NCBI GenBank assembly: GCA_038279365.1
Contig: JAYODI010000030.1
Coordinates: 32,164 to 57,332 of the forward strand
Source: Candidatus Latescibacterota bacterium
GTDB lineage: Bacteria; Latescibacterota; UBA2968
DNA length: 25,169 nucleotides
Direction of reading: 5' to 3'
Part shown: positions 4,951 through 25,118 of the stretch, piece after piece
Position numbering within the stretch: the stretch's first letter is position 1
Layout of the letters: every line of letters starts with the position of its first letter
The notes under the pieces: generated by a model
Seen by the model: only the letters and a program-made list of their open reading frames with translations
What the model was told of the DNA's origin: nothing
The model's database searches: none
Made by a program: the position numbers and the translations under genes

Positions 4951-4991
4951 GTATGATTTTCTCCTCAGATAGTGAATGCTTATGACATCCG

Positions 4992-5151
4992 GATCAGGGT
5001 GACGCTGATCGATCCACCCTGAGAGGCAATTATTGTTCGCTCTGAAACCCGGCGCTTCGCGCGGGGACCAAAAGGCTCACGATAGACGACGGCGCTCCGC
5101 ACCTGTCTAACCGGCTTCGCCGGGAGTCGTTTATTGGATAGACTCAGACAG
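4992..5151 (-). promoter_or_regulatory. Structured intergenic leader upstream of the FadL-family gene
   Basis: Several short stems: 5103-5108/5146-5151, 5124-5128/5141-5145, 5111-5115/5119-5123 and 4994-5001/5015-5022, plus mutually exclusive alternatives. No known family recognised. Confidence 0.4.
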
Positions 5152-5207
5152 TTTCGCGCATGCAGTTTCTAATAGAATCCCTCCTCTATGGTGTTATCGT
5201 CTCGATA

Positions 5208-6644: not shown

Positions 6645-6659
6645 CCCCGGTTTTAAGAT

Positions 6660-7325: not shown

Positions 7326-7392
7326 TTTATATATCTCCCATTGAGAATGTTGGGGACTCTTGCGGGATGTTTTCTGCCTTGAAGAAGGCCTG

Positions 7393-8049
7393 TCATAGCG
7401 ATTGAACGAGCTTGCGTACCTGCTCTTTTGCGCCAGATAAAATGGGGGCGCCATGGGATACGATGAGCGCATCAAAATCGTGGTCCAGGATTTTGCGGTA
7501 GGAATCAAAACCCCGTTTCCGAATGAACGCGCGCGGCATGGTGTTGAGCTCGGCGCGAAACCCGACCAGCTTCATGCCGGGAACAATGAAGTCTTCGGGT
7601 TGCAGGTTGAAAAAGGCATCACCAACGATGAGAACATTTCGGTCGCCCAGGTTATAGAGCAATGCCGTTTCGCCTCGAAAGGTGCCGAGCATGTCGATGG
7701 TTTGAAAGAGGCCGAGGAGCGTGTCTCCGGGTTGGAAGAAGAGATCTACGCCGACTTCGATTTTGGACATCAAATCGCGGTGGGCACAAATCTGTGCGCC
7801 ATACTGCTTGCGATAGAATGCGGCATCTCGGACGTGATTGGTACCACAAATGACCACATGCGTGGGCGTGCCGAGGGCCTCCATTTCTGCCAGGTTGGCC
7901 TGATAGAATGGATCGATTAAGATCACTGCGTCATCTGTTTTGATCAGATGCATGCTGCCCGGCACGCGGAAAGGGCCAAAAAACGGCACTCTTCCCTCGG
8001 CGCGATAGATGCCCGGCAGGCATTCCGACCATGTTTTTTCGTTGTCCAA
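7393..8049 (-). CDS. Metallo-beta-lactamase-fold protein, degenerate metal site (paralog 1)
   Basis: 218 aa with a TTG start (uncertain). Motifs VILIDP, HVVICGTNHVRD, LIVGDA and FDALIVSHG. Colinear with the downstream paralog (LPGIYRA, KTxDA, LMSKIE, LSGAK). Confidence 0.8.
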   Translation of the reverse strand: MDNEKTWSECLPGIYRAEGRVPFFGPFRVPGSMHLIKTDDAVILIDPFYQANLAEMEALGTPTHVVICGTNHVRDAAFYRKQYGAQICAHRDLMSKIEVGVDLFFQPGDTLLGLFQTIDMLGTFRGETALLYNLGDRNVLIVGDAFFNLQPEDFIVPGMKLVGFRAELNTMPRAFIRKRGFDSYRKILDHDFDALIVSHGAPILSGAKEQVRKLVQSL

Positions 8050-8070: not shown

Positions 8071-9480
8071 TCAGGCTGCCTCGAAACAGGCGTGGAATCC
8101 GAGGTGAATGGGCGAATTGAGTTCTAACATGGCCACCGGTCCGTTTGCCACATTGAAGGCGTCGAAAATGGCAAAGTAGCTCTGGATTTTCTCGGCATCC
8201 AGCATCTGGCAGATGATGGCGCCTTCTTCCCCTTTGGGGTTACCCACAAAAACGGGTTCGCCACCCAAATAGTGGTTTGGCAAAACTTGGTACATATCCT
8301 GCGTGCCATTCCAATTGAGATGAACGAGCCGATCAAAAAATTTGCGTCCCGGTTTAGCGGTGTTGCCAATACCCAGCACCCAAAAATCTTCACAGCGCTG
8401 AGCAGTTTTGCGACCATCTATTGTAGGAAAGTCGCACATATTGTTGTAGCTCAATGTATGTTGTTCGGTGATTTCACATTGAGATAAGTTGATCTTCAAA
8501 CGAAGTGCACGGGCTTCGCGAACATCAGAAAATAAATCGGGAATAATTTGATATTGATCATATACGGGCTGGTCCAATTCAATCATGTCAATGATGAGGC
8601 TGTCATCCTCTTCAAAGGCATGGGTCAAATGCAAGCAGTAGTTTTGCCCAATAGAAAAGGAGGCAATTTCTTCTCCCGTTTCGCAAGAAATAATGAGTAA
8701 ACGGCTTCCGCGTTCTGGCTGCCAAACAAGTGCATCCATCAGCGGTTGCCCGTCGGACAGGAATTTGTCCATATCCAGTATATAGGGGCTTAAATAAAAT
8801 ATTGCATAGTGTTTGCTAAGCGCAAAGTCATGAATCGAGCATGGTGATTTGAGCGGAAACCGCTTGCGATAAATAAGACGGCCATCCGATCCAAAACGAT
8901 AAAAATTCAGCATGGGGTGGGTGGGTGAAAAAGCGATGCCAAAATTGAACATGTCCCCAGTGTTGTGATCAAATTTGGGATGTGCAGAAAAAGGACTGAC
9001 CCTATTGAGGCGTTTCCCAAAAGTATAGAGACCTCGTGTTTCAAGGGTGATGGGGTCAAGTTCATAAGGCACCCCCTGTTCGCCAAATGCCAAAAGTGTA
9101 TTGGCAAACGGATAGACACTCACATTAACCGGCGAAGCCAGCGCAATTCCACGAATGAGTTGATCACCGTCAAAAGCCGTGCCAAATGTACGGTAGAGCG
9201 GGCGCCCCGCTTCGGCTTCATCAACAAATTTCTGACTGCGCACAAAGCGGTGTGTAACGTGTACCTCACCTTCTGAAAAAAGGAGGGAACAGACCATGCC
9301 ATCGCCATCTAACCAATGCCGATATCTCAAGTTGCCATATACAAAACGCGCCGGGCCATTTAGATAATAGGTCCCCCGAATGTACTCTGGGATTTCACCC
9401 ATAATCTGGTCAATTTTGTAACTGTCTTCATGCACATCAAGCATAAAGATGCGTTCCAGCATGGAAGCGTGATTCTCCAT
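8071..9480 (-). CDS. Carotenoid cleavage dioxygenase / lignostilbene dioxygenase (RPE65 family)
   Basis: GTYYLNGP, HWLDGDGM and NVSV motifs. Four candidate Fe-ligand His in FSAHPK, SIHDF, CLHLTHAFE and LGFHACF, plus EPVFV. Confidence 0.93.
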   Translation of the reverse strand: MENHASMLERIFMLDVHEDSYKIDQIMGEIPEYIRGTYYLNGPARFVYGNLRYRHWLDGDGMVCSLLFSEGEVHVTHRFVRSQKFVDEAEAGRPLYRTFGTAFDGDQLIRGIALASPVNVSVYPFANTLLAFGEQGVPYELDPITLETRGLYTFGKRLNRVSPFSAHPKFDHNTGDMFNFGIAFSPTHPMLNFYRFGSDGRLIYRKRFPLKSPCSIHDFALSKHYAIFYLSPYILDMDKFLSDGQPLMDALVWQPERGSRLLIISCETGEEIASFSIGQNYCLHLTHAFEEDDSLIIDMIELDQPVYDQYQIIPDLFSDVREARALRLKINLSQCEITEQHTLSYNNMCDFPTIDGRKTAQRCEDFWVLGIGNTAKPGRKFFDRLVHLNWNGTQDMYQVLPNHYLGGEPVFVGNPKGEEGAIICQMLDAEKIQSYFAIFDAFNVANGPVAMLELNSPIHLGFHACFEAA

Positions 9481-9556
9481 CTTGAGGTCCCGTTGGTTGC
9501 TACATCTGAAAAAACAACACAGTGCATAATATTCTGCTTTGACTATGTTGTTTTGA

Positions 9557-11311
9557 TTAATTCACCGACACGTTTTCGGGGTTGTGTGTTTTGGCTTCAC
9601 GAAATTTTTCCATACCATCAGGGCAAAATGACCATTGATAAGGCACATCAGAGCCTCTACAAATTTCATAATATTGTCGAATGGCTTCAACATCAAATTC
9701 AAAATGGCTAAGATCAATGGCTTTAATAAATGCCTGATTGGTCAATACCGATTTGTCCTCGAGTACAATTGAACACATGTAGGTTAAGAAATAACGTGCC
9801 AACTCAGAAAGGCTTTCGACCTGGCTTTCCAAAACTTGGCGCGCTTCTTCAACAGTGACGCCAACTTGGTAGAACGTTTTTTCTGCCGTCTTGAGCGGTT
9901 CGACTTGGGTGAAATCGTGAAAAATGGGATCAGCAAAAGGTTCGCGATGCTGTTTTTTCCATTGGTAAAAAGCACTGATAAATTGTTGCAAGTTTTTGTT
10001 GATGGGCCCCAACACAGAAAAGTGCTTAAAAAACGACAAAACAAATCGACGATCTGCACACAAATCATTAATGAAAGGAAAAACGAAGAAGCTGAAATAG
10101 ACAGCGAGCTCCCAAGTATATTTGATGGAAAAAGCTTCCTGATCGCCCAATGCATCGTAACTGATGGCATAAGTAGGTAACAAAGACTCGTAAATAGATC
10201 GCACCATCAACTCATAAAAATTGCATTTGCTTTCTAATTCTTGAACATCGTCCGTTTTGATGGCATCCACAATTAAGGTATTGTGAAATGCTATAAAATC
10301 ACTTCCGGGGCTATAGAGGGGATCGGTAAACCGGCCGGCTTCACCCGACATAGCCCAGCGCGCCTTGTTAATTGTTTGTCGGCACCCATGAGAAAATGAC
10401 TTATAAGAACTCTTCGCCAAAATTTTGCGATTGGGCAGGTCGCGTTCAAAAAGCGGAAACCGCGCACAAAGCCATTTGATCAATTTTTCGGGTGTATTGA
10501 CTTCTTTATGATCCACAAGCTTGTTGTCGTAGACCAATCCCAAACTGGTGATACCTTGAAGCGGAATAACCCAAAACCAAAAACCTTCACCCATGAAATG
10601 ATTGGTAGCCTGCCAAGCGGGGAGATGCCCAAGATGCATTCTATCGCGTTTTAAACGACGTTCTGTGCGTGACAGATCCGTTAACCTGTCAATATCGACC
10701 AATCCGTCTACCCAAAAGAATGTTGAACCATGATCGATGGGGTTTGTTTCCTGTAATGCCATCTGACGTGCCAGCACCTTGATGCGCCCCGACGTATCAA
10801 CAACCCAAGCAGTTGAGAAGCTTTTTTGCTGCTCCTGATATGTAAAGGTAATCTGGTGCGGGCCTTCTTCCGACAGCTTCACGTCGAGATCTGATGTGGG
10901 CGTCATCAGCGTAAAATTGTCGAATGTGCGATTGCGGCGCAACAGTTCGGCCTCAATTTTGTTTCGGTCAAGTTGATAACATGGAATATTGGAAAAGGTT
11001 CGAATATATGCATGCGAGAAATCCTCGAAATTGCGATTTTCGCGACCCGCGCTTCCCCAATAGAAACGCAGGTTGTATTTCATAAAATGCTCACGGAAAA
11101 GATATTCTTCCATGTCTAACACCTTGCCCAAATAATACCCACCAACCTGTACCAGTGATTCGCCGACCTTCTGTAACTTAGGTGGAATTTCTTCTCGGCG
11201 ATCAATCAGCAATATCCGTTTGTCGGTCTCCAAAAGCAACTGGTGAGACAGCGTGAGGCCTGCCAGACCTGCACCAATAATAATGACGTCATAATCTTCT
11301 GTGTTTTGCAT
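9557..11311 (-). CDS. Flavin-dependent halogenase-like FAD enzyme (tryptophan-halogenase superfamily)
   Basis: DVIIIGAGLAG (GxGxxG), KVGES, a candidate catalytic Lys in FMKYNLRF, the WxWxIP signature (GFWFWVIPL) and GEAGRFTDPLYSPG. Start re-called to ATG 11311 (MQNTEDYDV); the ORF track extends to a TTG at 11374. Confidence 0.82.
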   Translation of the reverse strand: MQNTEDYDVIIIGAGLAGLTLSHQLLLETDKRILLIDRREEIPPKLQKVGESLVQVGGYYLGKVLDMEEYLFREHFMKYNLRFYWGSAGRENRNFEDFSHAYIRTFSNIPCYQLDRNKIEAELLRRNRTFDNFTLMTPTSDLDVKLSEEGPHQITFTYQEQQKSFSTAWVVDTSGRIKVLARQMALQETNPIDHGSTFFWVDGLVDIDRLTDLSRTERRLKRDRMHLGHLPAWQATNHFMGEGFWFWVIPLQGITSLGLVYDNKLVDHKEVNTPEKLIKWLCARFPLFERDLPNRKILAKSSYKSFSHGCRQTINKARWAMSGEAGRFTDPLYSPGSDFIAFHNTLIVDAIKTDDVQELESKCNFYELMVRSIYESLLPTYAISYDALGDQEAFSIKYTWELAVYFSFFVFPFINDLCADRRFVLSFFKHFSVLGPINKNLQQFISAFYQWKKQHREPFADPIFHDFTQVEPLKTAEKTFYQVGVTVEEARQVLESQVESLSELARYFLTYMCSIVLEDKSVLTNQAFIKAIDLSHFEFDVEAIRQYYEICRGSDVPYQWSFCPDGMEKFREAKTHNPENVSVN

Positions 11312-11374
11312 GGTTTTATGCTCTAAATGATGAATGGTTATATGTTCCAACAGGAATCCATTACAACTGCTCAA

Positions 11375-12628
11375 TTACGAACTTTTTCCTTCTATCACCC
11401 AATCAGGCAGCGCATCGGCATCGAGCCAATTGGAAATTTGCCGCCAAGTGCGCAGTGAACCCAAGAGTGTTTGATAGTGCTGCATCGAATGTTGTGTGAG
11501 AAATCCTTTGTAGAGCCGCTCTTTTCGCACATCTAATTTTTCGCCAATCTGGCCACCTGTCACAGCATTCAAAAAGTCTAAAGTAGGAATCGTAGGGTCC
11601 ACATTTTCGGCTTTGAGCGGCATGTCATCAAGGATATGTTTAATGGGTTTAAACACACGAGACGTCATGCCAAATGACATAAAATCGGCCAGACCAAAAC
11701 TCCAATTGACCGGATCGAAACGCAGATTCATAATTTTTTCGGGCTGGTCAGAAACAAAGGTCATCATCAACCGCACTTCACCCGTGTCCATAACCTTAAA
11801 ATTGATGGTTTGAAACGCAGCACCAAACTCGCCTGGCCCGTAGGCAAATGGGCCTCGGTGTGGGTTTTTGACAAAGGCATAACCAAAGCCGTATTCTCCC
11901 AACACCCCCGGCTGCGGGTTATCAACATTGGTAATGAACTCAGGTGTTAAGATCAAATAGGTCGATTCTTTGAGCGGCATGGTCACAGATGGAGAATCAA
12001 CACCCAAAGGTTGCATGGTCACGCTAAAATCAAAAACCTGAAGATTGAGTACGATCCATTCATACGTTTTGCCAATTTCCCTAAGGTCAACAATCTGCTG
12101 TGCGGTTTCTTTGTCAAATTTGCCAATTTCCCCCGTATCGGCCAATTTGTAATAAACCTGAGAAAATCCCATGCCTTTGCGCTGAATATTTTCTTTGGGA
12201 CTCATCAAAGTCTGCAAAAATTTGGGCAGATGACTGGGTCCAACGATCTTCTCTGGCAAACGAAAATCACTGACACGCAAAAAGTAATGAAGCACAAATT
12301 CTTTAATTTGTTCACAGGTCCATTCGACCGATCGGGCTTTTGCATCTCCCGATGCTTTGGGCTGGTCGTAAAACAGCTCGTCACGCACCCCCATTACGGG
12401 CATGATTTTGTTATTTTCCAGTTTGGCTTTGCCAAAAAAACCAAAACTTTTTTCTGGGCGATGCAGGGTGTGTACCAAGTCAAATCGCTCAGAAAACCCA
12501 TCGCTGGTATATGCCTCCTGCCACCATGATTTGAGCGCACGTCCATCAGACAAAAACCCATCCAAAGTCTTGAGTATTTGCTGATCTTCTTCTGTCATAC
12601 GATCTATAATTGGTGTTTTTTTCGTCAT
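11375..12628 (-). CDS. Hypothetical protein (417 aa)
   Basis: Long ORF in the operon orientation with an AAGGG RBS. No family motif recognised. Confidence 0.75.
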   Translation of the reverse strand: MTKKTPIIDRMTEEDQQILKTLDGFLSDGRALKSWWQEAYTSDGFSERFDLVHTLHRPEKSFGFFGKAKLENNKIMPVMGVRDELFYDQPKASGDAKARSVEWTCEQIKEFVLHYFLRVSDFRLPEKIVGPSHLPKFLQTLMSPKENIQRKGMGFSQVYYKLADTGEIGKFDKETAQQIVDLREIGKTYEWIVLNLQVFDFSVTMQPLGVDSPSVTMPLKESTYLILTPEFITNVDNPQPGVLGEYGFGYAFVKNPHRGPFAYGPGEFGAAFQTINFKVMDTGEVRLMMTFVSDQPEKIMNLRFDPVNWSFGLADFMSFGMTSRVFKPIKHILDDMPLKAENVDPTIPTLDFLNAVTGGQIGEKLDVRKERLYKGFLTQHSMQHYQTLLGSLRTWRQISNWLDADALPDWVIEGKSS

Positions 12629-12676
12629 TGTCTAAACACCCTTCTGTATGTGTTGTACACGTTTACCTATGCACAT

Positions 12677-12910
12677 CTATTTGTCTTTTTGGTGAAACAC
12701 GGCCAAGCGTTTTTTCACGCCGTTGCTGATGTCTCCTGCCTTTTCCATCATTTGAGCCATCTGCATCACTTTTTGCATGGCTTCAGGTGGTGTCAACCGA
12801 CCCTTTTTTAAGGTGTAGACCCCATACAGATAGAGCGTAATAAAGTCGTTGAGCATCGACCCATCAAACAGGGGTTCTTCAATTTTTTGTGGTTCCTCTT
12901 GCTCTGACAT
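12677..12910 (-). CDS. Small hypothetical helical protein (77 aa)
   Basis: Strong GGGAGG RBS 4 nt before the ATG. It fills the gap between two long genes in the same orientation. Confidence 0.7.
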   Translation of the reverse strand: MSEQEEPQKIEEPLFDGSMLNDFITLYLYGVYTLKKGRLTPPEAMQKVMQMAQMMEKAGDISNGVKKRLAVFHQKDK

Positions 12911-12968
12911 GGTGCCTCCCCAAATGGGCTTAATAGATACTCATTGCGCGTTTAAAAGTTTACCCAAA

Positions 12969-15900
12969 TTACGGACGTGCCTTTTCTTCATCGGTGGGCT
13001 TGGTGTTGACATTTGAAACAAATCCGCCGTTGATCTGGATGCTGACATAAGGCGTTTTACGCGACGTTGATATTTGTGCCGTCACCAATTGAATACTTTC
13101 CTGTCCGGCTTTTTCCCAAATGCCATAACCCGAAAAGCTGACCGTGTCGTAGTTGCCTTCTTTGAGTGTTGATTGACGCGAGTTGGTGAAGCTCACCCAG
13201 GTCAGGCTGTTCAACTTGAACCTGCCATCCTGACTGTGGTTGGTGTAGACAAATGACGCATCTCGGTTTTCTGGGTCAGATGGAATGTCGAAGCTGTATG
13301 AAAAATGTTCACCCGTTGAGGCAACAACGTCTTCGGCCTCACCTTTTTTGACAAAATCGGTGGGCGCATCGTTGTGCATGGCTTGTAGCCACATAAAGGG
13401 ATCCAGTGTCGAGTCAGAGAGCACTTTGAAACCCGAACCGAGATTGGGAGATGGGAAGTAGAATTCGCCGGGATAAACCACACGAACCTCACCGTCAAAA
13501 CGGAAGACGGTTTCACCCTGTGGACCTTTTTCAAAACAGGCAGGGCCTCTAAAAAAGAACGACGATTTGGGTGTGCGTGGTTCAACGCGAATAAGTGCAA
13601 AAAACAAGTTTTGGCTAATCAAGCCGCGCTGCAAAACGTTGGCGAGTACTTTGCCCGTTTTGAGGTTGACCATGCCAACCGACAAATCGAACGGGTCATC
13701 AATAGAAAACACATTGTTGAGAAAATAGGTTTGTTGTGGAAAGCGCAAAAACTCGTTATGCCCATGGGGTCCTGGCAGCAATGGCATATTGGCTTCAGAA
13801 CCAGGCAATTTTTCACTGAGAGGATTGTCTTTGAGCGCATGCCCCAAAAACCCCCCCGGATTGAGTTTGGTGATGGCAATGGGAACAGAGTCGCCACAGC
13901 GCTGACCAAATTGCACCATAATACGCCCCAGCAAATGCGAGCGGCCTTTTCCCGTACCACCCAGTTCGGGCAGGTCGAGCGTAAAAAGATCACCAAAACT
14001 GGTATTGTGTGTGTAAATCGTATATTCTTGCAGCGTATTTTCAGGCAATTCGGGTAACAAGTCTGATTCTTCGAGCGGTTCGGGTGCCTTGGTGCTCAAA
14101 TGCAAATGAGGATGCAGGGTCGTACCACGTGCCGGAATATGAGCATACTGCTGTGTGGGACTGCAAAATGGCAATGGAAACCGAATCGGATCGTCGAGAC
14201 CCGGTACCATACCCAATGGCACAAAAGTGCTACCGTAAAATGAAAAATCCAGTTTGCCATCGTTGCGTTGCTCAAATTTGGCCCAGGCCGATCCATACAT
14301 GCCCGGAAACTGGATGGGCACATCGGGGAACTTGGGGTTGACACGAACAAGTGAGAAAAGTGCTGTGTTGAAAAAACGCACGGCCCAATCTAAGTTGGTG
14401 ACTTCGCCCGTTTCCAGGTTCAGATCACCAGATGAAATTATCTTGGGATCATCTTTGACCTGATTGTGCAGAACGGGCAATTTAAAAAATGTGGGGGCTG
14501 TCATAACGCCATCATCACCCACAAGGCCCGTTTCGCCACCATGATAGACCTCAAAGTGCGTGATCTTGTCTTTGGGTTCCGAAAACTTAAAACGCAAATA
14601 ACCATTCAAATGGCTATCGGTCATAGCCAAGCCCCCAAAGAGCAGATCTCCAGAAGAACCAAAGTCAGCGTCTATTTTGTTTTTGCAATTCACCGGGCGA
14701 ATGGCATCGCCAAAATAGCTGGCCTCTTTGCTCAGTGGCAAGATTTGCTCGCCCCCAGGCGGCAATTGGAGCATCAAAGATGGATCATCGGCCACGACAA
14801 CCTCGTTTGCCGGTTCTTCAGGCATTTCAGGCGGGCTAAGCGGTTCGGGCATTTGTTCAACCCTACGCGGAAGATCTTCCATGGCCAGCACAGGGCCTTC
14901 GGCCTGATGATAATCTGCAACCGCATCGGTCGCTGCAATGTGAGACACATCAATCAGTGGAAAACTGGCTTCATAAACTTCATTGAGACGCCTGAGCACA
15001 TCGTTGGCAATAAGCGCATGACCCGTGGCACCTGGATAATAGCCATTGAGCGAGTAAAAACCACCCAAGAAATCGGCAGTAAGTGTTTGGCCATGTTCAC
15101 GGATGCCTGATTCGGCCAAATGGTGGATAAACCCGTGAAGATCATAGACCAACGCACTGTGTGCATCGGCCTTTTCGGAAATGGCCCGATTGAGGGCTGA
15201 AACACATGTGTGAACAGTGTTGGCCATTTCACCTGAGAGAATCGATCCTTCGGGCAGTGTTGAGATCTTGCCAGACAGAAACTGGCAACCCATTTCCATA
15301 AGCCCATTAACCGTGATCCGATCGCCCTCTGCAAGGTCGTACGTATTTTGAATAATGGCTGGATCAACCTTGAGATTGAGAGCTGCCGATTCTATGCTTG
15401 AAAAATAGGCCGTGTCCATCGGATCGGGTACGGTCATAACCAGAACCTGAGCGCCTTGTTCGCGAAATGTCGTGATTAGTTTTTCATAACTTTCAGCAAA
15501 AGCTGCACCATCGGGCAGTGCATCACTATTCTGGCTAATAGCCGCTTCCAGTACTTCGTGAAATCCGAGGGCCAACAATACAAATGAAGGGTTGCGCTGC
15601 TGAGCATATTCAAATTGTGTGAGACACGCCCCCGTCCCATTGCGAAAACCATCAAGCCCCAAAATGAGGTTGGCAGATGTTTGTTTGACATCGTCGCGAT
15701 GAATAATTGGCAATTGGGGGCGTAAGTGGATGGCATCTGAAAGTGTAAAACCGGGTACAGACAAATTGCACAGCGCATCGGCCTCTACATTTTCCATAAT
15801 GGTGGTTTGAAAGTGTGCGGGCAAAACAACCGGCAACTCACCAAAACCAACAGGGCTACCAAAACCAGGCGGCTGTACCAAAGGTTGCTCAAACCGAGTT

Positions 15901-16346: not shown

Positions 16347-16404
16347 GGAACACTCCTGTCACATCAAATGCATGTGATGAGTTGAAAATAAACTTCGAAA
16401 AACA

Positions 16405-17694: not shown

Positions 17695-17958
17695 CTATTT
17701 GGATCCTTCAGATTGGTTGTTTACACCGTTCCACGAAAAATGCCAAACAGCCCAGCGGATAATCTGACTGTCGGTAAATGGAACACCATGTTGGGCTTCG
17801 AGGCCTGTTCGAATATCATTTAAGATTTCACGATCTGTTTCAGAAAGTGCCACCATCAAACCCGTATCTTGCGAAACAGGCAATACGTCTGTCATGGGCA
17901 GGTCAATTTTTTGAATGCCACGCCCTGCTGGTAAGCGTTTTTTTGGGGCATCAGACAT
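17695..17958 (-). CDS. Small ParA partner protein, putative ribbon-helix-helix with an N-terminal basic GRG motif
   Basis: Start overlaps the parA stop (ATGTCTGA). N-terminus KKRLPAGRGI; C-terminal strand-helix-helix pattern LMVALSETDREILNDIR...TDSQIIRWAV. Confidence 0.7.
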   Translation of the reverse strand: MSDAPKKRLPAGRGIQKIDLPMTDVLPVSQDTGLMVALSETDREILNDIRTGLEAQHGVPFTDSQIIRWAVWHFSWNGVNNQSEGSK

Positions 17959-18700
17959 GAGACAAAATCTCCTGCGCTATATCGATAAAAGCACGGGCAC
18001 CCGTTGACCGCGGTGCATAGACAATAACAGGTTGACCGTTTGCCGAAGCCTCATCAATGGCCACATTAACAGCGACATATTTTGTGGTTTTTTTCCCAAA
18101 GTGTGTTTTAATTTCCGACAAAATCTCATTGGCCAAAGCGGTTCTGCGATACATCATCGGAATAACATGGGCAATATCGAGGTCTGGGCGACGAAATCGC
18201 TTTTGAACCGTTTCAATGGCCCACAACACTTGTGATGTACCTTCTAGGGCAAAATGCGCCACCTGAATAGGGAGAATGATATGATGTGCGGCAACCAGCG
18301 CATTGGTGGTAAACAATCCCAAACGAGGAGGACAATCAATAAACACAAATGCATATTGATCTTCAAGGGCATCCAGCGCAACCGAAAGTGCCATTTCTTT
18401 TCCGGGTGCACCACTCATTTCAGCATCGTCAAGGCGCAAATTTGACGGGGCCAAATCCAAATTTTTTATGGGGGTGGCCATAATCACATCTTGGAGTGCT
18501 ACCGTTCCAAGCAACACCTCGCGCATCGTTTGAGGCAATTCGTAGGGCTGAATGCCCAAATGGATACTGGCATTCCCTTGAGGATCGAGATCCACCAAAA
18601 GGGTTTTGTGGCCCTTTTTGGCAAATGCAGCAGCCAGGTTAACAGCGGCGGTGGTTTTTCCAACACCGCCTTTGTTGTTGGCAATGGCGTAAGTGATCAT
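17951..18700 (-). CDS. parA: ParA/Soj family ATPase
   Basis: Deviant Walker A NNKGGVGKTT, A' VDLDPQGN, Walker B FIDCPP, and EAxxxGQP. The ATG at 18700 (MITYAIAN) is preferred to the TTG at 18715. Confidence 0.95.
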   Translation of the reverse strand: MITYAIANNKGGVGKTTAAVNLAAAFAKKGHKTLLVDLDPQGNASIHLGIQPYELPQTMREVLLGTVALQDVIMATPIKNLDLAPSNLRLDDAEMSGAPGKEMALSVALDALEDQYAFVFIDCPPRLGLFTTNALVAAHHIILPIQVAHFALEGTSQVLWAIETVQKRFRRPDLDIAHVIPMMYRRTALANEILSEIKTHFGKKTTKYVAVNVAIDEASANGQPVIVYAPRSTGARAFIDIAQEILSHV

Positions 18701-18717
18701 AGAGAAATAACCCAATA

Positions 18718-18732
18718 GATTGTTTTACAATC
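18718..18732. promoter_or_regulatory. Palindrome GATTGT-N3-ACAATC, candidate operator upstream of parA
   Basis: Perfect 6-3-6 inverted repeat in the short gap between the 450-aa gene and parA. Confidence 0.4.
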
Positions 18733-18747
18733 CATTATCAGTGGTTT

Positions 18748-20100
18748 TTACTGATCGCTCAAAATTTGATCGATGAGCGCAGAAAGATCGCGATAACAAA
18801 AAATATCTCCCAGACGCTGATGTTCTTTGAGAATAGGATAATATTTCCGCAATGCAACTTCGCACGATTGCTGCACCAAACTGTTCCACTTGTCGGCAAA
18901 TGCGGCACCAAATCCATCGGGTGTTGTCATATACAGGTTGTCAATAAAAGGCGCATCAGGTGTGGTGTCTTGTCGCATCATCAATCCAGACATCACACCG
19001 TTTTGAAATCCGTCGCGCTCGTCTTCGTCTTCGACATTTAAATGATGGAGCAAATTGCCAAGAATATGTGGATGACGAACATTAACCATCGTCACACCCC
19101 ACGATAAACCTGCAAAAGCATTTCGCCTTGCCACACGCTCGGTGGCTTCGCGCCGGATCATTTCGATAGGGTGCCAGATCGCGCCATAACCGGGCAAAAA
19201 GTTGATGGGAGAAAAATAGATAGAACGACCCACACCGTGCCAAAAATATCCGTAGGCTTCTGGGTCCATTTCTTCTAACAAATGGCTAATAATCTGAACC
19301 ATTTCATCGGGCCGCGTGTCTCCATAAAATGCCCCACTGCGCGAGATCAGCCCCAAAGATTCGATAGCCGCGCCCTCATATCCGGGTTTTGAATTTTCTT
19401 TGCACAGCAAAATAATTTGTTTGAGCGCCTGGCGAATATCAGAATGTGAACTCAAGTGGTTAATGCCCCGCAAAAAATGCTGGGCAATGGCCATGCCCAC
19501 CCCCGCGTGAAGCATTGTCAAACTGCCATCCCTCACACCTTCAGTCTCAGTGAGCGCATTTTGCGGCACCATGTTGCGCGTCCAAAACGTATCGCCATAA
19601 TAATGTCCCAATCCTTCAACAGCCCACAACGATGGATATTCATCAAGTGCATAGGCACGTTCGACAAGTTCCGACAATGGCGGGTAGGGGGGTGCATCAG
19701 GCAGGTTGAGCGTTTTGGGTACTTGATAGACCAAATTAAACACCGTTAATTTGTTGCGCAATTCCTGCCAAGCCAAACGCCCATCTTTACTTGGCCCAAG
19801 GCTTTTGACCATTTCCAAAGACCAGGCCATAATTTCCGAAGTTGTTTTGGCGGTGCGACGTGGGTCGAGCATGTTCAACATCATATCGGTCACTTCTCGC
19901 TGCAAATCATCACCCACTTGAAACATGCTTTGCATCATATCACCCAGTTGTGACCCCGTTGCCAGTGTGGCGGCATCAAAGGCTTCGGTTGCCGTTTGGG
20001 TTGGCTGTGTCGGATGGGTAACAAGATTGATGATCTGTTTGGCACCAAACAGGGGCACCGCCCAAGCCAGACTTAAAGTGGATTTGGTGAATTCGCGCAT
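18748..20100 (-). CDS. Hypothetical helical protein with shared N-terminal module (possibly DUF1702-like)
   Basis: GGGAGG RBS. Recurrent Gly-centred helices WAVEGLGHY, LHAGVGMA, IESLGL, FWHGVGR and FAGLSWG. Paralog of 16405..17694. Confidence 0.8.
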   Translation of the reverse strand: MREFTKSTLSLAWAVPLFGAKQIINLVTHPTQPTQTATEAFDAATLATGSQLGDMMQSMFQVGDDLQREVTDMMLNMLDPRRTAKTTSEIMAWSLEMVKSLGPSKDGRLAWQELRNKLTVFNLVYQVPKTLNLPDAPPYPPLSELVERAYALDEYPSLWAVEGLGHYYGDTFWTRNMVPQNALTETEGVRDGSLTMLHAGVGMAIAQHFLRGINHLSSHSDIRQALKQIILLCKENSKPGYEGAAIESLGLISRSGAFYGDTRPDEMVQIISHLLEEMDPEAYGYFWHGVGRSIYFSPINFLPGYGAIWHPIEMIRREATERVARRNAFAGLSWGVTMVNVRHPHILGNLLHHLNVEDEDERDGFQNGVMSGLMMRQDTTPDAPFIDNLYMTTPDGFGAAFADKWNSLVQQSCEVALRKYYPILKEHQRLGDIFCYRDLSALIDQILSDQ

Positions 20101-20159
20101 CTATACACCTCCCGTGTAGGGGCGGATGGTTGACAGCTAAAAACTATCAAAAAAGCGAG

Positions 20160-21782
20160 TTATTTCTTGTTATTCTTTGAGCGCATGATAATCCAGAGCA
20201 AAACACTTCCAATCATCGCAAAAACGACGGCGCCTATTTGTTCAAGCCACACCCTAGCCATGCCCGATTGCACCAGGTGATAAACCAGAAGCACAACAGC
20301 AACAAGCAAAATCAAAAGCGAAATGGCCACAGATGATGTGTTGCGCGTTTGGCGATGTTCGGTTGCTTCTTGAATGCGAAAACGCAGTGTTAAATCGCTG
20401 TCTGCGGCTTGGGTAAGCAAAGCATCAAGTTTTTGGGGCAACTCCGAAAAAGATCCTGCGTATTTATTCAAAGCATCAGACCACGATTCTGTGGCAAATG
20501 CGTCCTGAAATTGATCGTTTCTGAGTTGCTCTTGATAAATGATGAGTGCATCGTTAAATGGATCTGCATCAGGTGCAAGTTGGTGTGCTGAAGCACCTAC
20601 CCAAAATAAACCACAGAAAAAATTGAGCAATTCTTTACGCGGTCGATAACCCTGTTCGGTGACCAAACGCCAATGCACAAAAATATGTTCGAGCAAACCA
20701 TCCTGAACACCCAGGTTGCCCCACCCGCCATCGCGAAAAGGGACCACTTGGCGAAACAGATGACGCAGTGTTTTTTCGTCGCAAACCGATGATTTGGCAT
20801 CCATTTCGCGCAGCAAACTTCGACAGGCTTGCTCGGGGTCGTGTTGTGCTGTAGCCGTGAGATAAGACCAAATATTTTCTCGTGTGTTGCTGCTGAGTTT
20901 TAAAAAAGGGCCACTTAGAAACACAACCGATTCATTGGGCAAACCCACAACATAGCGAAGGTGAGCGGCCGTTGTATAAACGCGCCCGTGAAACACTTGC
21001 TGTAGCCAACCCGAACAAAACGAACGGGCCAGCGTGAGGCGTTTTTCACCTGAGTCTGATTGTTTGTTTTGGTCTAAACAACGATCAAACCCTTCAAGGG
21101 TTAACACTTTGTCCCCACATAACATCGGGTAAACAGTGGGAACGCGACACCACTCGGATGTTTGCAGATCTTCTTTGGCAACAAGCAAATTTTCTCTTTC
21201 GCTCACAAAATCCATTTGAAACGTGAGCATGGCTTTAAAGTGCGCCACAACATCGGCAAAGGTTTCCTGCGCAAAACCCAATGCCATAAAAACACGTTCC
21301 AAACTTTCGAGATGACGCCAAACCTCATCGAGCCGATTGTGAACATCGGGGTGCTGGATTTTGACAACCACATCTGCCCCACCATGCATATGCGCATGGT
21401 GCAGTTGGTAGAGTGTATAGACTTGAAAAGGCTCGGGCTCAAAAGTCTCGTAGACTTCAAGAAGTGGACGACCCATTTGTGCCTGAAAAAAAACACCCAG
21501 ATCTTCAAATGATGTGGATCGGGCAACATCGGTGATGTCACCCAATACCAAGCAGCTTGAAATGGGAAACAAATCGGCACGACAAGCCAAATATTGACCA
21601 AAAAGAGCAAAACCCTGACCCAGTTTCTCGAGTGTGTTGCAACATGCCAGATAGGCCGAAGTGTCCATGGCAGACGGGGGTGTAGCCATGCATTTGGACA
21701 TCAGCGCATTCAGCATTTGCGTGATTTCTCGATCACGCAAATCAGATGTTTTTTGTAAAGGTTGCAAGACTGTGTTTGGCAT
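20160..21782 (-). CDS. UbiB/ABC1 (AarF) family pseudokinase with two C-terminal TM helices
   Basis: Colinear with the upstream kinase (LEKLGQGFALFGQYLACRADLFP, VVVKIQHP, MDFVSE, VPTVY, VLTLE) but lacks catalytic motifs. The ATG at 21782 has an AGGA RBS; the ORF track uses a TTG at 21797. Confidence 0.8.
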   Translation of the reverse strand: MPNTVLQPLQKTSDLRDREITQMLNALMSKCMATPPSAMDTSAYLACCNTLEKLGQGFALFGQYLACRADLFPISSCLVLGDITDVARSTSFEDLGVFFQAQMGRPLLEVYETFEPEPFQVYTLYQLHHAHMHGGADVVVKIQHPDVHNRLDEVWRHLESLERVFMALGFAQETFADVVAHFKAMLTFQMDFVSERENLLVAKEDLQTSEWCRVPTVYPMLCGDKVLTLEGFDRCLDQNKQSDSGEKRLTLARSFCSGWLQQVFHGRVYTTAAHLRYVVGLPNESVVFLSGPFLKLSSNTRENIWSYLTATAQHDPEQACRSLLREMDAKSSVCDEKTLRHLFRQVVPFRDGGWGNLGVQDGLLEHIFVHWRLVTEQGYRPRKELLNFFCGLFWVGASAHQLAPDADPFNDALIIYQEQLRNDQFQDAFATESWSDALNKYAGSFSELPQKLDALLTQAADSDLTLRFRIQEATEHRQTRNTSSVAISLLILLVAVVLLVYHLVQSGMARVWLEQIGAVVFAMIGSVLLWIIMRSKNNKK

Positions 21783-21798
21783 TTTGTTCCTAAACAAC

Positions 21799-23457
21799 TC
21801 ACATCAATTTGCGAAGGGTGTTGATCAACAAAAGCCCTGTGACACCCATGACCATGAGTTCAGCTGTAAAAAAGTTGATACCGATAACGGAGGGTTCTCC
21901 TGTTACAATCATAAGTATAGGCATCACCAAAAACACAACGGACAACTGAAGCGCGCGTGATCGCGTCGAGCGATCCGATTCACCGTCTTTGTCACCAATT
22001 TCTATGGGCAAATCTCCCGATGCCAAGCGCTGAATGAAACGGCTGGCACGATAGGCACCATCGCGTAACAAATTGCCACTGGCCTGGGTCATGGCCATCA
22101 AACGGTTGGGCGACATCATTTGCTCAAATGCCTGTGCTTTGAGAAAGCGACTGCACACGGTTTCAAGATAGTGCCCCACATCAAACCCGGGGGAAAAGCG
22201 GGTGATTAACCCATCGATGGCAATAGAGGATCGGATATACTTAATCACATCACGTTCTGGCCAGATATTGGTTTTACGAGACAACAAAAGCATATCGAGC
22301 ATAACCAGCGTGAAGTTTTTTTGAATGCGCGTTTTAGTACCCTGGCCATCATACCATTCTTTGGCATATTCGCGCAGACCCTGGTGAAATCCTTCAAGAT
22401 CGGACGTTTCATCCCATTCGGTCACATGTAAAAATGCTTCAGACATGCTGTCCAAATCTCCTTGGGTATACGCCAACGTCATTTTAATAAGATGCTGACG
22501 CGAATAATTGCTCAGCACCCCCGTAATACCAAAATCAACATATCCAACAATGTTGCCTGGCAAAATGATCAAATTGGCCGGATGCAAATCGGCGTGAAAC
22601 AACCCAAAACGAAAAGCATCTCCCAAAAAATTGTCAATAATGTGTCGTGCAAAAGCTTCTGGTTCAAACCCCTTTTGTTTCAATTGACCAACACGCACAT
22701 GATCATCAGCTTCAAATGCCCGTAAAAAAGTCAGTACCGTAACACCTTCTAAAAATTCAGTAACCAAAATGCGACGGGTGGTGTATTCCCAATACACCGC
22801 GGGCACATGTTCCCAGGCATTTTCTCGGGCGTTGCTTCTCATTTGGCCCATATAACGCGCTTCAAAACGATAGTCGAGTTCTTCATTTGTCCACGATACA
22901 AACTCACTCATCGGTTCAATCATCCAATAGAGCGGTTTCACACGCAACGCACGAATCAAGCGAATGGTTGTGCTCATCAAACTGACATCGCCTGCAAACT
23001 CGACCTCGACCGCGGGCCGACGCACTTTAACAGCCACTTTGCGACCACTGATTGTCGCTATATACACCTGCCCAATGGAGGCCGTTGATATCGGGTTGGG
23101 ATCAAAAGTATCAAATACTTCTTCGGGTGTTTGACCCAAATCTTCTTGAAAGGCCTGCTCAACAAAACGGTAGGGATAAGGGGCAATGCGATCAAGCAAA
23201 TCGGCCAGTTCACGGCAATATGCAAAGGGCAAAATATCGGGCTGTAATGCCAACATTTGACCAAATTTTATAAAGGTGCCACCCATCTCTTCAAGGGCGA
23301 TACGCAATCGTTTGGGCCCCGATAAGGCAACCTCAGGAAAGCGATTGACCAACCACTTTCGACGCATCATATACGGCCCGACCAGTTGATAACATAAGTG
23401 CCGCCCAACAACACCGATAAGGTGTCGCATGCGTCGCAGGTTTTGCCAAAATACCAT
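21799..23457 (-). CDS. UbiB/ABC1 (AarF) family atypical kinase, intact, with two C-terminal TM helices
   Basis: GGTFIKFGQ (KxGQ), TASIGQVY, VAVKV, ELDYRFEA, FHADLHPANL and DFG are present. The start overlaps the upstream stop (TGATG). Confidence 0.95.
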   Translation of the reverse strand: MVFWQNLRRMRHLIGVVGRHLCYQLVGPYMMRRKWLVNRFPEVALSGPKRLRIALEEMGGTFIKFGQMLALQPDILPFAYCRELADLLDRIAPYPYRFVEQAFQEDLGQTPEEVFDTFDPNPISTASIGQVYIATISGRKVAVKVRRPAVEVEFAGDVSLMSTTIRLIRALRVKPLYWMIEPMSEFVSWTNEELDYRFEARYMGQMRSNARENAWEHVPAVYWEYTTRRILVTEFLEGVTVLTFLRAFEADDHVRVGQLKQKGFEPEAFARHIIDNFLGDAFRFGLFHADLHPANLIILPGNIVGYVDFGITGVLSNYSRQHLIKMTLAYTQGDLDSMSEAFLHVTEWDETSDLEGFHQGLREYAKEWYDGQGTKTRIQKNFTLVMLDMLLLSRKTNIWPERDVIKYIRSSIAIDGLITRFSPGFDVGHYLETVCSRFLKAQAFEQMMSPNRLMAMTQASGNLLRDGAYRASRFIQRLASGDLPIEIGDKDGESDRSTRSRALQLSVVFLVMPILMIVTGEPSVIGINFFTAELMVMGVTGLLLINTLRKLM

Positions 23458-25118
23458 CAGGCCGTCGTCTCTTTAAAAATTGAACCCCAAAAAATGTGTT
23501 TGCGACGTTTGACCATATCATCCAAAGCTGCTTGCATTCGCATTCGAATATCTTGTGAAATTTCTTTGACGATAATAGGATCATCGGCAGCCTCGGGCCC
23601 ATACTGCTTTTCAATATGTATCGGTTCGAGAAAATGAATATGCCATTTTGTGGGTAAAGGTATGGGCAATAAAGGAAACGGGGGTGCAATGGGAAAACAG
23701 GGCCAAAGCGAGAAACGTTTCCACCATCGCCAATTGAGCTTTGCAAAAATGGGGAAAATCTCGGGTGTACCTGCTGTGACAAAGGGCACAATCGGAGCCT
23801 GGTTGCGCAAGGCTATTTTGACATATTCGTCACGGCCAAATTTGCCCAGTTTGTACGCATCGCGATAATACGTGAAGGCACCGTGAATACCTTCGGGATA
23901 CATGCCCAATACTTCATCGCGTCCAAGCACATAATCGGCATTTTCCTGACACGCGATCATGCCACCCAATTTGGTCATAAAATTAAACTGAAACGGAAAT
24001 TTAATGAGGGTAGGATGGATCAAAAATCGCGTGTATCGACGACATTCGGTGACGATTAAGAGAAACGTTGTAACGGCATCCAATGGCATGAAACCACGGT
24101 GTACACCCGTTAAAACTGCCCGCCCATGAGATGGAATGTTTTCAATGCCCTTGTGTTCAATACGCCAATACACATAACGCAAAAACGGGAAAAGGATGCG
24201 CCGATATGCTTCGACGTATTTTTTGTCGAGGCCATAAGCATCAAAATCCGTTGTGTTGGGCAAAAATGCTGGCTTGTGATTTTGTTGCTCTGCAAAGTCA
24301 AATAGAGCTTCTGCCGTGGTTTGCTGAGGTTGAAACCCCCATTCGGTTTTGATCTTTTGGTTGGACACTGTCCAGGCATATCGTACAAAATCCAGTTGAT
24401 CGGCCGGTCGCCTGCGCACCAAACTCTGAAGGAATTTGGGAGCAGTCAAACGACGCGTTCTGGCCATTTTAAGTGCTTTGCGCAAAGGCATTGCCCCATC
24501 GGGAGCAACATTATAGATGCCTCCTGCACTTTTTTGAATGGCCAAACAGATCGCTTCAATCCAATCTTTGGGAGAAAGCAATTGTAACAGCGGGTCATGC
24601 CCGGGTAGCGTAATGGAAAGACCACCATCGAACAAACGATTGAAGTAAGTATTGCCATGAGGAACCAATACAGGCGCCGGACGCAAAAGTGTGAGTTTTG
24701 CTTTTTGAAATGCGCTTTCTGCAATTTCTTCTAAAGCAATCCATTGTTGTGCAATGGCGTTTTTACCACTGTAGGTGCGTGGGCGCGTTTCGGGCAAATA
24801 ACCAATATTGTGTGGTCTTGGGCCATATATTTCAGCGCTGGAAATAACAATTGCATGACCGATATGTGCTTGTGCAGCTCCATTTAAAATGTCTTTGGCT
24901 TGTGCCAAATTTAGGGTGCCGCGTTTGGGATGCACGGGTGGAAAATAAATCAGTATATCTGCTTGTACGTTAAACATGGATGCATCGTCATGTGACCAAT
25001 GGGTGTGATGTGAACACGTCACCCCTGAGGCATTTTCCAAACGCGCTACCAGAGCTTGTGAAATGACATGATTTTTTTTGTTATCAGGATGGGTGTCTAT
25101 AACTAAAACCTTGGCCAC
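23457..25118 (-). CDS. Fusion of a degenerate extended-SDR (epimerase-like) domain and a PlsC/LPLAT MGAT-like acyltransferase
   Basis: GTG start with AGAGG RBS. The N-half has ISSAEIYG, LLRPAPV, GIYNVA and KxEWGFQP. The C-half has DAYGLD, GIENIP, VHRGFMPLD, YPEG, APIVP and PLPTKW. Confidence 0.88.
   Translation of the reverse strand: MAKVLVIDTHPDNKKNHVISQALVARLENASGVTCSHHTHWSHDDASMFNVQADILIYFPPVHPKRGTLNLAQAKDILNGAAQAHIGHAIVISSAEIYGPRPHNIGYLPETRPRTYSGKNAIAQQWIALEEIAESAFQKAKLTLLRPAPVLVPHGNTYFNRLFDGGLSITLPGHDPLLQLLSPKDWIEAICLAIQKSAGGIYNVAPDGAMPLRKALKMARTRRLTAPKFLQSLVRRRPADQLDFVRYAWTVSNQKIKTEWGFQPQQTTAEALFDFAEQQNHKPAFLPNTTDFDAYGLDKKYVEAYRRILFPFLRYVYWRIEHKGIENIPSHGRAVLTGVHRGFMPLDAVTTFLLIVTECRRYTRFLIHPTLIKFPFQFNFMTKLGGMIACQENADYVLGRDEVLGMYPEGIHGAFTYYRDAYKLGKFGRDEYVKIALRNQAPIVPFVTAGTPEIFPIFAKLNWRWWKRFSLWPCFPIAPPFPLLPIPLPTKWHIHFLEPIHIEKQYGPEAADDPIIVKEISQDIRMRMQAALDDMVKRRKHIFWGSIFKETTA

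Follow-up and report, generated by a model that had tools for sequence, protein, structure and literature searches.

A stretch of 25,169 nucleotides (nt) from the genome of a Candidatus Latescibacterota bacterium (assembly GCA_038279365.1; contig JAYODI010000030.1, here C169, positions 32164–57332), referred to below as the window, carries the downstream part of a conserved gene cluster. Twelve co-oriented genes lie at positions 8071–25118, on the minus strand like all sizeable open reading frames (ORFs) of the window, and they belong to a single-strand run of about 45 kb. They encode, among others, an intact and a degenerate UbiB/ABC1 protein (ABC1a and ABC1b), an acyltransferase (AcT), the unannotated proteins U450, U429, U1125 and U417, and an N-terminal module of about 80 residues (N-module) that is common to U450, U429 and U1125. 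Taking all the evidence together, we lean modestly towards the view that the cluster is a specialised lipid synthesis and membrane-handling system. Upstream lies a chain-building set similar to type II fatty acid synthase (FAS) or polyketide synthase (PKS) genes, while the genes in the window would make up the set for handling the product at the membrane.

Conservation was analysed with a U450-family search restricted to one genome per species, which returned 114 relatives; 80 loci were retained, with lengths of 3,096–21,988 nt, many of them cut by contig ends. The counts per 80 loci in Table 1 were obtained by tblastn of 18 window proteins against these loci. The core genes (AcT, ABC1a, ABC1b, U417 and U1125) were found in 47–58 of the 80 loci, with one order and strand, in several phyla. 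This usual order is AcT, ABC1a, a small N-module-only protein, U450, (AhpC/TSA), ABC1b, (a fusion of the N-module to a haloalkane dehalogenase), two more unannotated families, a second U450 paralogue, U417, patatin and U1125. A halogenase and a carotenoid/stilbene cleavage dioxygenase (CCD) are inserted as a pair in some lineages. Lipid-related neighbours also recur, namely patatin, AhpC/TSA, DinB, FadL, and a lipase with cNMP-binding and patatin domains; a DinB-family gene occupies the U450/U429 junction in Zixibacteria and in another Latescibacterota locus. Carriers are mostly Acidobacteriota, with further members in Latescibacterota, Zixibacteria, Nitrospinota, Pirellula/Pirellulaceae (Planctomycetota) and Chthoniobacterales (Verrucomicrobiota). 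The first-pass annotation of the window had proposed a conserved multi-gene system, and the synteny supports that proposal. The ORF listing and junction coordinates also agree with its account of 12 co-oriented genes with overlapping or abutting junctions: AcT and ABC1a share base 23457, ParA and the 87-aa ORF overlap by 8 nt, the 87-aa ORF abuts U429, and U417 abuts the halogenase (605 aa). ABC1a and ABC1b are 1 nt apart, with a TTG start. Its domain calls were upheld by matches to PF01553, PF03109, PF04820, PF03055 and AAA_31, with the scores given below.

Contig C169 ends at the high end of the window, and its last 55 nt are identical to the first 55 nt of contig C107. This word occurs in no other contig of the genome (6.03 Mb, 98.5% complete, 7.4% contaminated). 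Contig L005, from a Latescibacterota metagenome-assembled genome (MAG) with a 98% identical U450 relative, has genes for a 952-aa protein and a 621-aa FG-GAP/ASPIC protein directly before AcT. This order matches what C107 would supply, which supports the adjacency of C169 and C107. On C107, on the same strand and from far to near, lie genes for an acyl carrier protein (ACP), a ketosynthase (KS), a partner like a chain-length factor (CLF), an enzyme similar to HMG-CoA reductase (HMGR-like) and a CrtI-family flavoenzyme (CrtI-like), followed by a block of FG-GAP/UnbV_ASPIC and TPR genes. The KS has the active-site Cys and two His (AACAAGT, HGTGT, GHTMG), all three catalytic residues are gone from the CLF (TGASSG, ACGSP and GETLG at the aligned places), and the ACP has the DSL motif (DLGLDSL); these are the features of a type II FAS/PKS KS–CLF–ACP set. 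FabF-family scores of the KS/CLF pair were 354 and 272 bits. The HMGR-like gene is of class I and scored 349 bits, below the equivalog cut-off of 442. Among the 24 loci with at least 6 kb upstream of AcT, CrtI-like genes were found in 20, HMGR-like genes in 14, KS in 10, CLF in 10 and FG-GAP genes in 8. In loci with intervening FG-GAP genes, it is at the very edge of the available DNA that the CrtI-like gene lies.

At the other end, same-strand genes continue downstream of the CCD: two MBL-fold ORFs (MBL, metallo-beta-lactamase), an aldehyde dehydrogenase (ALDH), a FadL-type channel, a protein with a type IX secretion system (T9SS) tail, a 289-aa protein and a 701-aa lipase, beyond which the strand switches. 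The first-pass annotation had expected the cluster to extend beyond the window and had suggested a check of the upstream flank for PKS, FAS or ACP genes. Both were borne out, by the same-strand genes on the two sides and by the ACP, KS and Cys-less CLF on the adjoining contig. Cluster GC is close to the genome value of 46.5%, and no tRNA was found in the window.

The motifs of UbiB/ABC1 proteins are known as KxGQ, the beta3 Lys, the HxDxHxxN catalytic loop and DFG. All four are present in ABC1a (IKFGQ, VAVKV, HADLHPAN and VDFGI; PF03109, 184 bits, cut-off 22.9; TIGR01982, 247 bits), and the catalytic set is intact in 29/29 class-A homologues. In ABC1b (PF03109, 96 bits), KxGQ has become ALFGQ, the catalytic loop TTAAHLRY and DFG LS-GP, so that only the beta3 Lys is left. 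The Lys of KxGQ, the HxD loop and DFG are gone in 43/43 class-B homologues. Given these degenerate motifs, ABC1b would be a member of the fold family and is not likely to be an enzyme, in agreement with the kinase/pseudokinase pair proposed at first pass. Segments resembling transmembrane (TM) helices were identified at 500–518 and 524–542 of ABC1a and at 484–502 and 516–534 of ABC1b; apart from a Rossmann strand of the halogenase, these are the sole TM-like segments among the 12 genes. ABC1a and ABC1b are also the genome's only full ABC1 genes. A complex prediction with ABC1a (40–445), ABC1b (40–460) and the N-module (1–105) gave a score of 0.00 with controls that did not fold, and carries no weight in either direction. 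AcT matched PF01553 (E 8.5e-9) and, weakly, the Epimerase profile. Its homologues keep H-x6-D and PEG in 30/30 cases and the Gly-rich Rossmann motif in 0/30.

The N-module is visible in the translations of the three proteins. A profile search of the six-frame 6.03-Mb genome identified exactly three ORFs, all in the cluster (U450, E 9e-36; U1125, 1.5e-23; U429, 1.3e-22). The shared module described at first pass is thus present and private to the cluster. Three other genomes (Blastocatellia, Pirellula and a Nitrospinota MAG) gave 3, 3 and 5 matches, all inside one stretch of about 5–9 kb each, and the N-module was therefore confined to the cluster in 4/4 genomes checked. A hidden Markov model of the first 80 residues, searched against the ORFs of the 80 loci, gave 72 domain matches in the U450 family, 30 in small stand-alone proteins, 9 in U1125 relatives and 5 in the dehalogenase fusion, and several singletons including an 856-aa alpha/beta hydrolase. 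Across loci, the N-module is joined to at least five different protein families. One of these is haloalkane dehalogenase (NF002938, 363 bits, cut-off 241), found as a fusion in the Acidobacteriota loci L027 (14136–15473), L021, L025 and L032. This fusion and the halogenase never occurred in one locus among the loci scanned, and halogen chemistry thus recurs in two forms.

Among 1.84 billion representative proteins, the N-module profile matched 953 at E ≤ 1e-3 and 668 at E ≤ 1e-10. Of the best 150 matches, 149 begin within the first 13 residues, and most of the proteins are about 80–290 aa long. An exception is a 5994-aa protein (P0126) with 13 partial matches to the middle of the profile (E 3.8e-34), which may consist of repeats of a related pair of helices or else reflect an artefact of composition. 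In the AlphaFold2 (AF2) model, the N-module forms three low-confidence helices that are not packed on the U450 core. Helix 1 is moderately hydrophobic, below the TM threshold, and helix 3 is amphipathic (muH ~0.55). Since it is N-terminal, exclusive to the cluster and fused to unrelated folds, the N-module appears to behave like an address or docking tag. A further cluster family, f5, gave an hhalign probability of 28% over 32 columns with the N-module and was not counted as related.

U450 is the anchor family of the cluster. It has 667 relatives, none with a Pfam domain, and 30 columns of its family alignment are invariant. The residues E, H, N, R, W and G abound among these columns, which include E113, E162, H166, N236, E247 and R292. 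U429 is 29% identical to U450 and keeps every invariant column. The AF2 model of U450 is all-alpha and confident (pLDDT 83.4). A Pfam scan of 26 members of the alignment gave scattered matches only (E ≥ 0.017), and PDB sequence searches with the U450 and U417 family alignments and with U1125 gave nothing usable. With the U450 model, Foldseek returned no match in the PDB at E ≤ 1e-3; the best were repeats of the armadillo/TPR type (E 0.05), and TM scores were below 0.2 in all but one of the rows listed. In a wide VIA-align search the top match had a Z of 6.2 and covered 49 residues in the N-terminal helices; the core matched only AlkD2 (Z 5.4, rmsd 6.9). Two candidate identities were dropped. 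A heme-oxygenase-like diiron protein was represented only by weak HrmI rows (probability 0.12–0.15), and a relative of the enediyne-cluster UnbL/DUF1702 family, an idea that came from the UnbV_ASPIC neighbours, had no Pfam match.

U417 gave a different picture at the level of fold. Its AF2 model (pLDDT 79.6) produced 16 Foldseek matches at E ≤ 1e-3, and the 15 listed were all START domains. VIA-align placed it with STARD3 (Z 10.3, rmsd 4.0, 198/214), Bet v 1 (Z 10.0, rmsd 3.0, 154/159) and the silkworm carotenoid-binding domain (Z 9.9). U417 is thus modelled as a START/Bet v 1 helix-grip fold over the whole domain. Membership of the START, Coq10 or polyketide-cyclase families was not found in Pfam or NCBIfam at E 0.01, and the U417 family profile matched no PDB sequence at E 1. 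The lipid theme proposed at first pass is supported by this predicted fold, by the upstream ACP–KS–CLF genes and by the flanking patatin and NTE-like lipases.

In U1125, the place of the GDS block is taken by G-E-G, G-D-G or G-G-A in 7/7 aligned proteins. Seventeen further high-scoring pairs had EGL (12), EGM (1), DGL (1), GAV (1) or no motif (2), and GDS in none. Region ~110–470 of U1125 therefore lacks block I of SGNH/GDSL enzymes with its nucleophile Ser. A further cluster family, f9, was compared with U1125 (hhalign probability 1%) and was not counted as related. The 77-aa ORF beside U1125 gave no Pfam match; a 69-aa homologue in L010 (38% identity, E 3e-11) lies between a DinB gene and a U429-type gene. 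From this homology, the ORF is judged to be a genuine small gene whose place in the cluster varies.

Flavin-dependent halogenases are defined by the motifs GxGxxG, K-x-G-E-S/A and WxWxIP. The 605-aa flavoprotein (PF04820, 28.2 bits, cut-off 21) carries IIGAGLAG, QKVGES and FWFWVIP, and GxGxxG, K-V-G-E-S and W-x-W-x-I-P are all present in 16/16 homologues. It scored far below the cut-offs of the NCBIfam equivalogs CmlS and LodB. On its motifs, the identification as a halogenase, also made at first pass, is credible. The CCD (469 aa) matched PF03055 with 331.9 bits over profile positions 15–467 of 469, and is thus a full-length member of the RPE65 family. Its nearest NCBIfam entry was lignostilbene dioxygenase (176 bits, below cut-off). 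The halogenase lies beside the CCD in most of its 17 loci, and the two are an optional pair and not core genes.

Coordinates of the window features and their frequencies among the loci are given in Table 1. Several features of the flanks were also observed. On C107 (locus L003, 121–14812), the interval between the CrtI-like gene and AcT encodes TPR proteins, one cytochrome-c554-like/TPR protein and five proteins of the FG-GAP/UnbV_ASPIC kind; FG-GAP/ASPIC genes precede AcT in 8 of 24 Acidobacteriota loci as well. Next to the CCD on its downstream side, window positions 2001–8000 (the T9SS-tailed protein, FadL-like gene, ALDH and MBL ORFs) form a compositional island with a GC of 0.53–0.57, compared with 0.465 for the genome (sd 0.019 per 5 kb), and its genes accompany the cluster elsewhere in 0–2 of the 80 loci. 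ALDH is a local addition, possibly acting on CCD aldehydes. The two MBL ORFs overlap and both match Lactamase_B_5 positions 32–147. As they match the same part of the profile, they are tandem paralogues and not a single gene split by a frameshift; for the downstream ORF, the TTG start was probably called too early. FadL-type genes occur after the cluster in L009 and near it in L044.

The gene for the 701-aa lipase (C169, 30513–32618; L087, 114–2219) encodes cNMP-binding, NTE-family P-loop-like and patatin domains. From this architecture, the protein is predicted to be a bacterial lipase like neuropathy target esterase (NTE), under cyclic-nucleotide control. In L009 the cluster closes with a related 568-aa protein that has cNMP-binding and patatin domains. 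ORF clustering also assigns to this lipase family the genes next to the U450 relatives of L012 and L013, where the tblastn match was to the cNMP-binding part.

Table 1. Features of the window, with the number of U450-family loci (of 80) in which each was found by tblastn
Feature	Positions	Strand	Description	Loci (of 80)
AcT, 553 aa	23457–25118	-	Degenerate SDR/epimerase-like N-domain and PlsC-type acyltransferase domain	47
ABC1a, 552 aa	21799–23457	-	Catalytically intact UbiB/ABC1 atypical kinase/ATPase; two C-terminal hydrophobic segments	58
ABC1b, 545 aa	20160–21797	-	Degenerate UbiB/ABC1 paralogue (predicted pseudo-enzyme), also C-terminally anchored	57
U450, 450 aa	18748–20100	-	N-module and all-alpha core without family; anchor family of the cluster	
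N-module of U450, first ~80 residues	19861–20100	-	Profile match E 8.8e-36	
ParA, 254 aa	17951–18715	-	ParA/Soj-type P-loop ATPase; lineage-specific insertion	2
87-aa ORF	17695–17958	-	Orphan ParA partner; overlaps ParA, abuts U429	0
U429, 429 aa	16405–17694	-	U450 paralogue with its own N-module	
U1125, 1125 aa	12969–16346	-	N-module, GDSL/SGNH-like region without nucleophile Ser, then ~600 conserved residues	47
77-aa ORF	12677–12910	-	Small ORF between U1125 and U417	
U417, 417 aa	11375–12628	-	START/Bet v 1-fold (SRPBCC-like) predicted hydrophobic-ligand binder with insertions	48
Halogenase, 605 aa	9557–11374	-	Flavin-dependent halogenase-type enzyme (PF04820); optional module	17
CCD, 469 aa	8071–9480	-	Carotenoid/stilbene cleavage dioxygenase (PF03055); optional module	18
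MBL ORFs	7393–8049 and 6660–7508	-	Two tandem MBL-fold ORFs (Lactamase_B_5 profile)	0
ALDH	5208–6644	-	Aldehyde dehydrogenase (PF00171, 508 bits); co-oriented, downstream of CCD	1
FadL	3628–4950	-	FadL/TodX-type outer-membrane channel for hydrophobic compounds (PF03349, 66 bits)	2
T9SS protein			T9SS-tailed protein	2
289-aa protein				0
cNMP-binding protein, 701 aa (N-terminus)	3–455	-	cNMP-binding, NTE-P-loop-like, patatin lipase; last gene of the co-oriented run	4

The genes and their motifs, the folds, the synteny and the restriction of the N-module to the cluster are shown here; every step of the lipid system proposed on top of them is inferred. The KS, CLF and ACP would build an unusual long or unsaturated acyl chain, which the CrtI-like and HMGR-like enzymes would desaturate and release reductively. 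AcT would then esterify the chain to a lipid acceptor. The UbiB pair would use ATP for membrane extraction or insertion of the hydrophobic product, handing it over to the START-like U417, and the N-module would gather the soluble components at the same patch of membrane or in the same complex. The halogenase and CCD would act as an optional tailoring and cleavage pair. The optional genes as a whole (halogenase, CCD, dehalogenase, peroxiredoxin, DinB, lipases and FadL) suggest that tailoring, turnover and export differ between lineages.

A number of observations weigh against this reading. Product and chemistry are both predicted from gene content. KR, DH and ER genes (ketoreductase, dehydratase and enoyl reductase) were not found in the cluster, so that chain reduction would need the housekeeping FAS, and the HMGR-like gene could be a plain mevalonate-pathway gene. 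U450 has no recognisable fold or catalytic motif, which leaves the core of the system unexplained, and the SGNH reading of U1125 is tentative, its basis being one motif and atlas matches to Lipase_GDSL clusters at 0.79. The promoter and terminator scan stayed at shuffle level (23 vs 25.5 and 22 vs 24.4). Contigs at least 99% alike from RNA libraries of a salt marsh metagenome (X6, X10, X11 and X13) cover pieces of all large genes and bridge four junctions (ABC1a/ABC1b, ABC1b/U450, 87-aa/U429 and U429/U1125), but they are weak evidence of expression and no proof of transcription, because such contigs can contain DNA. In single runs, parts of the window had no cover of this kind, from which nothing is concluded. 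A U450 relative occurred without any other cluster gene in the available flank in 10/80 loci, five of which (L029, L031, L039, L053 and L075) are 15.6–21 kb long, and the family therefore also lives outside this cluster. Finally, the cluster is rare. Of 168 species genomes from the phylum of the window, only 3 carry it, and these belong to a single genus, that of the window; around an Acidobacteriota carrier it was found in 11/401 sampled genomes. This rare, multi-phylum pattern fits horizontal spread.

The ParA pair was examined separately, since the first-pass annotation had made it a part of the cluster and the basis of a positioning mechanism. ParA (NNKGGVGKTT, with the signature Lys; AAA_31, 177 bits; ParA_partition, 104 bits, below the cut-off of 180) is a deviant Walker A ATPase of the ParA/Soj type, about 42% identical (<43%) to the ten best-ranked plasmid-collection records listed. 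As in McdAB and type Ib ParA pairs, a small ParA is translationally coupled to a small basic-headed partner in a non-DNA operon. To our knowledge, McdA lacks the signature Lys. In contrast to McdAB, the Lys is present here as in Soj/ParA, the partner has no family, and the pair is not conserved with its putative cargo genes. The 87-aa partner gave no Pfam match even at E 10, and a ribbon-helix-helix or ParG-like DNA binder, suggested by its sequence pattern, is a guess; it has 3 relatives in 5.8 billion proteins and occurs in 2/168 genomes of the phylum, those of the window and one congener. The ParA matches among the 80 loci (L038 and L047, Acidobacteriota) were weak and in a different cluster position, with 26% identity in L047, and may be coincidence; the partner was found in none. 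In the congener G063, a U450-type gene fragment ends 95 nt before the U429-type gene, leaving no room for the pair. The pair may be co-transcribed, as RNA-library contigs cover it and one bridges the 87-aa/U429 junction. Its scarcity in the loci and absence from the congener indicate a recent, genus-level insertion and not a component of the system. Neither ParA-based positioning nor membership of the pair in the cluster could thus be upheld.

These data bear directly on the interpretation offered at first pass, a plastoglobule-like lipid body or scaffolded domain to which the N-module sorts proteins and which ParA positions in the manner of McdAB. In plants, CCD4 and PES are found in plastoglobules. 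The enzyme classes do match: the cyanoglobule and plastoglobule proteomes, in passages of the source (PMC12223511), contain three ABC1Ks, a DGAT2-like acyltransferase and the CrtI-family CrtO, classes that the cluster also brings together. In plants, a CCD is among the shared classes too. The N-module also has the moderately hydrophobic helix 1 and amphipathic helix 3 of monotopic lipid-surface proteins, is exclusive to the cluster, and ParA-type ORFs lie inside the cluster in L038 and L047. On the other side, fibrillin, the main structural protein of plastoglobules, was not found in the window genome (PF04755; the control matched in Synechococcus), which is 98.5% complete, and no structural or shell gene was recognised. 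The ParA pair is missing from 78/80 loci and from the congener at the same junction, its partner is an orphan, and the ParA of L047 is divergent and placed elsewhere. Moreover, the ordinary C-terminal anchors of the ABC1 proteins point to the cytoplasmic membrane. Plastoglobule and cyanoglobule proteins are not operon-encoded and have no common N-terminal tag, and the carriers here are not known phototrophs. The first-pass likeness to plastoglobules holds at the level of enzyme classes, the lipid body itself is putative, and ParA positioning is not supported; the first-pass reading as a whole seems distinctly improbable. A different proposal, which we regard as speculative and rather unlikely, centres on the tag. 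Here the N-module would be a sorting or docking signal that assembles otherwise unrelated proteins (the U450 family, U1125, a haloalkane dehalogenase and small adaptors) on a UbiB/pseudo-UbiB membrane platform, or on a plastoglobule-like lipid body in non-photosynthetic bacteria, forming a new, horizontally transferable lipid compartment or metabolon with U450 as a new core fold.

The cluster could also serve lipid damage control and turnover, with phospholipases (patatin, NTE-like), AcT as a re-acylating enzyme, peroxiredoxin, DinB, CCD and ALDH removing and replacing oxidised or halogenated lipids or polyenes that the UbiB pair and U417 extract. The recurrent AhpC/TSA, DinB, patatin and N-module-fused haloalkane dehalogenase neighbours would fit such a role, as would the cNMP-regulated NTE-like lipase that closes the run and the ALDH that follows the CCD in the window; an acyltransferase together with a lipase would suggest a logic of deacylation and reacylation. 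However, the near-constant upstream ACP–KS–CLF–HMGR-like–CrtI-like set is biosynthetic, and AhpC, DinB, dehalogenase and ALDH each occur in a minority of loci. The intact halogenase motifs further imply that halogen is added, not only removed, and we consider damage control unlikely as the main function. Alternatively, this might be an ordinary cluster of the aryl-polyene/xanthomonadin type, making a lipid-esterified halogenated polyene pigment, in which the unannotated proteins would be tailoring enzymes and the shared N-terminus a remnant of paralogy. Clusters of this type resemble the present one in their KS with a Cys-less CLF, ACP and PlsC-type acyltransferase, and in the halogenation of xanthomonadin; KS/CLF/ACP, acyltransferase, halogenase and CrtI-like genes lie here in one co-oriented run, and the patchy multi-phylum distribution is typical of transferable biosynthetic gene clusters. 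Markers of aryl-polyene clusters are KR/DH, ammonia-lyase, starter-unit and LolA/MMPL-type genes. The loci scanned showed neither a KR/DH pair nor genes for an ammonia-lyase, starter units or LolA/MMPL-type export, and the halogenase occurs in 17/80 loci only. In addition, the HMGR-like gene, UbiB pair, U450, U417, U1125 and N-module are extra to such clusters; no counterpart of the conserved dead/alive UbiB pair is known from them. The N-module also occurs on folds that are not related to one another (all-alpha in U450, alpha/beta in the dehalogenase, and that of U1125), so it is no remnant of paralogy. An ordinary pigment cluster is thus quite doubtful. A chance neighbourhood of unrelated genes has nothing in its favour beyond the variable accessory genes, and is refuted by the cluster-only N-module and by an order and strand shared among dozens of loci in several phyla.

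In the preferred reading, as a lipid synthesis and membrane-handling system, the closest mechanistic parallel may lie in quinone biology. COQ8/UbiB, COQ10-type proteins and UbiJ have roles in quinone handling, and COQ8/UbiB with COQ10 are thought to extract quinones and pass them on. PasT/RatA is reportedly the bacterial Coq10. In COQ8–COQ10 and E. coli UbiB–UbiJ, a UbiB-family protein goes with a START- or SCP2-type lipid carrier; likewise, the cluster encodes a UbiB-family ATPase beside a predicted START-fold binder of hydrophobic ligands, with the UbiB proteins anchored in the membrane. It differs in its obligate dead UbiB paralogue and in a U417 without a START or Coq10 Pfam match, and the cluster scans revealed no quinone-ring enzymes (UbiA-type prenyltransferase, methyltransferases or hydroxylases).

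Full-text searches on gene names and taxa, with MIBiG and supplementary files outside the search, found no description of the cluster, in line with the first-pass statement that no characterised cluster has this combination. The ladderane cluster of the comparative paper PMC2649909 has phytoene-desaturase-like genes and FabF paralogues; a term search of that paper found no mention of HMG, ABC1 or Acidobacteria, and it is not the same cluster. What is unusual here for a specialised-lipid gene cluster is its private tag at the N-terminus, together with three conserved families that lack annotation. If the reading holds, this would be a widespread but rare accessory lipid system in mostly uncultured soil and sediment phyla, with a possibly halogenated lipid or polyene product in Acidobacteriota. 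It would offer three handles for testing. One is the set of three large conserved families without annotation, with 667 relatives of U450 alone and 953 representative clusters that carry the tag. The natural alive/dead pair could show roles of UbiB outside quinone synthesis, and the cluster-private tag could reveal how soluble enzymes are recruited to lipid surfaces in bacteria.

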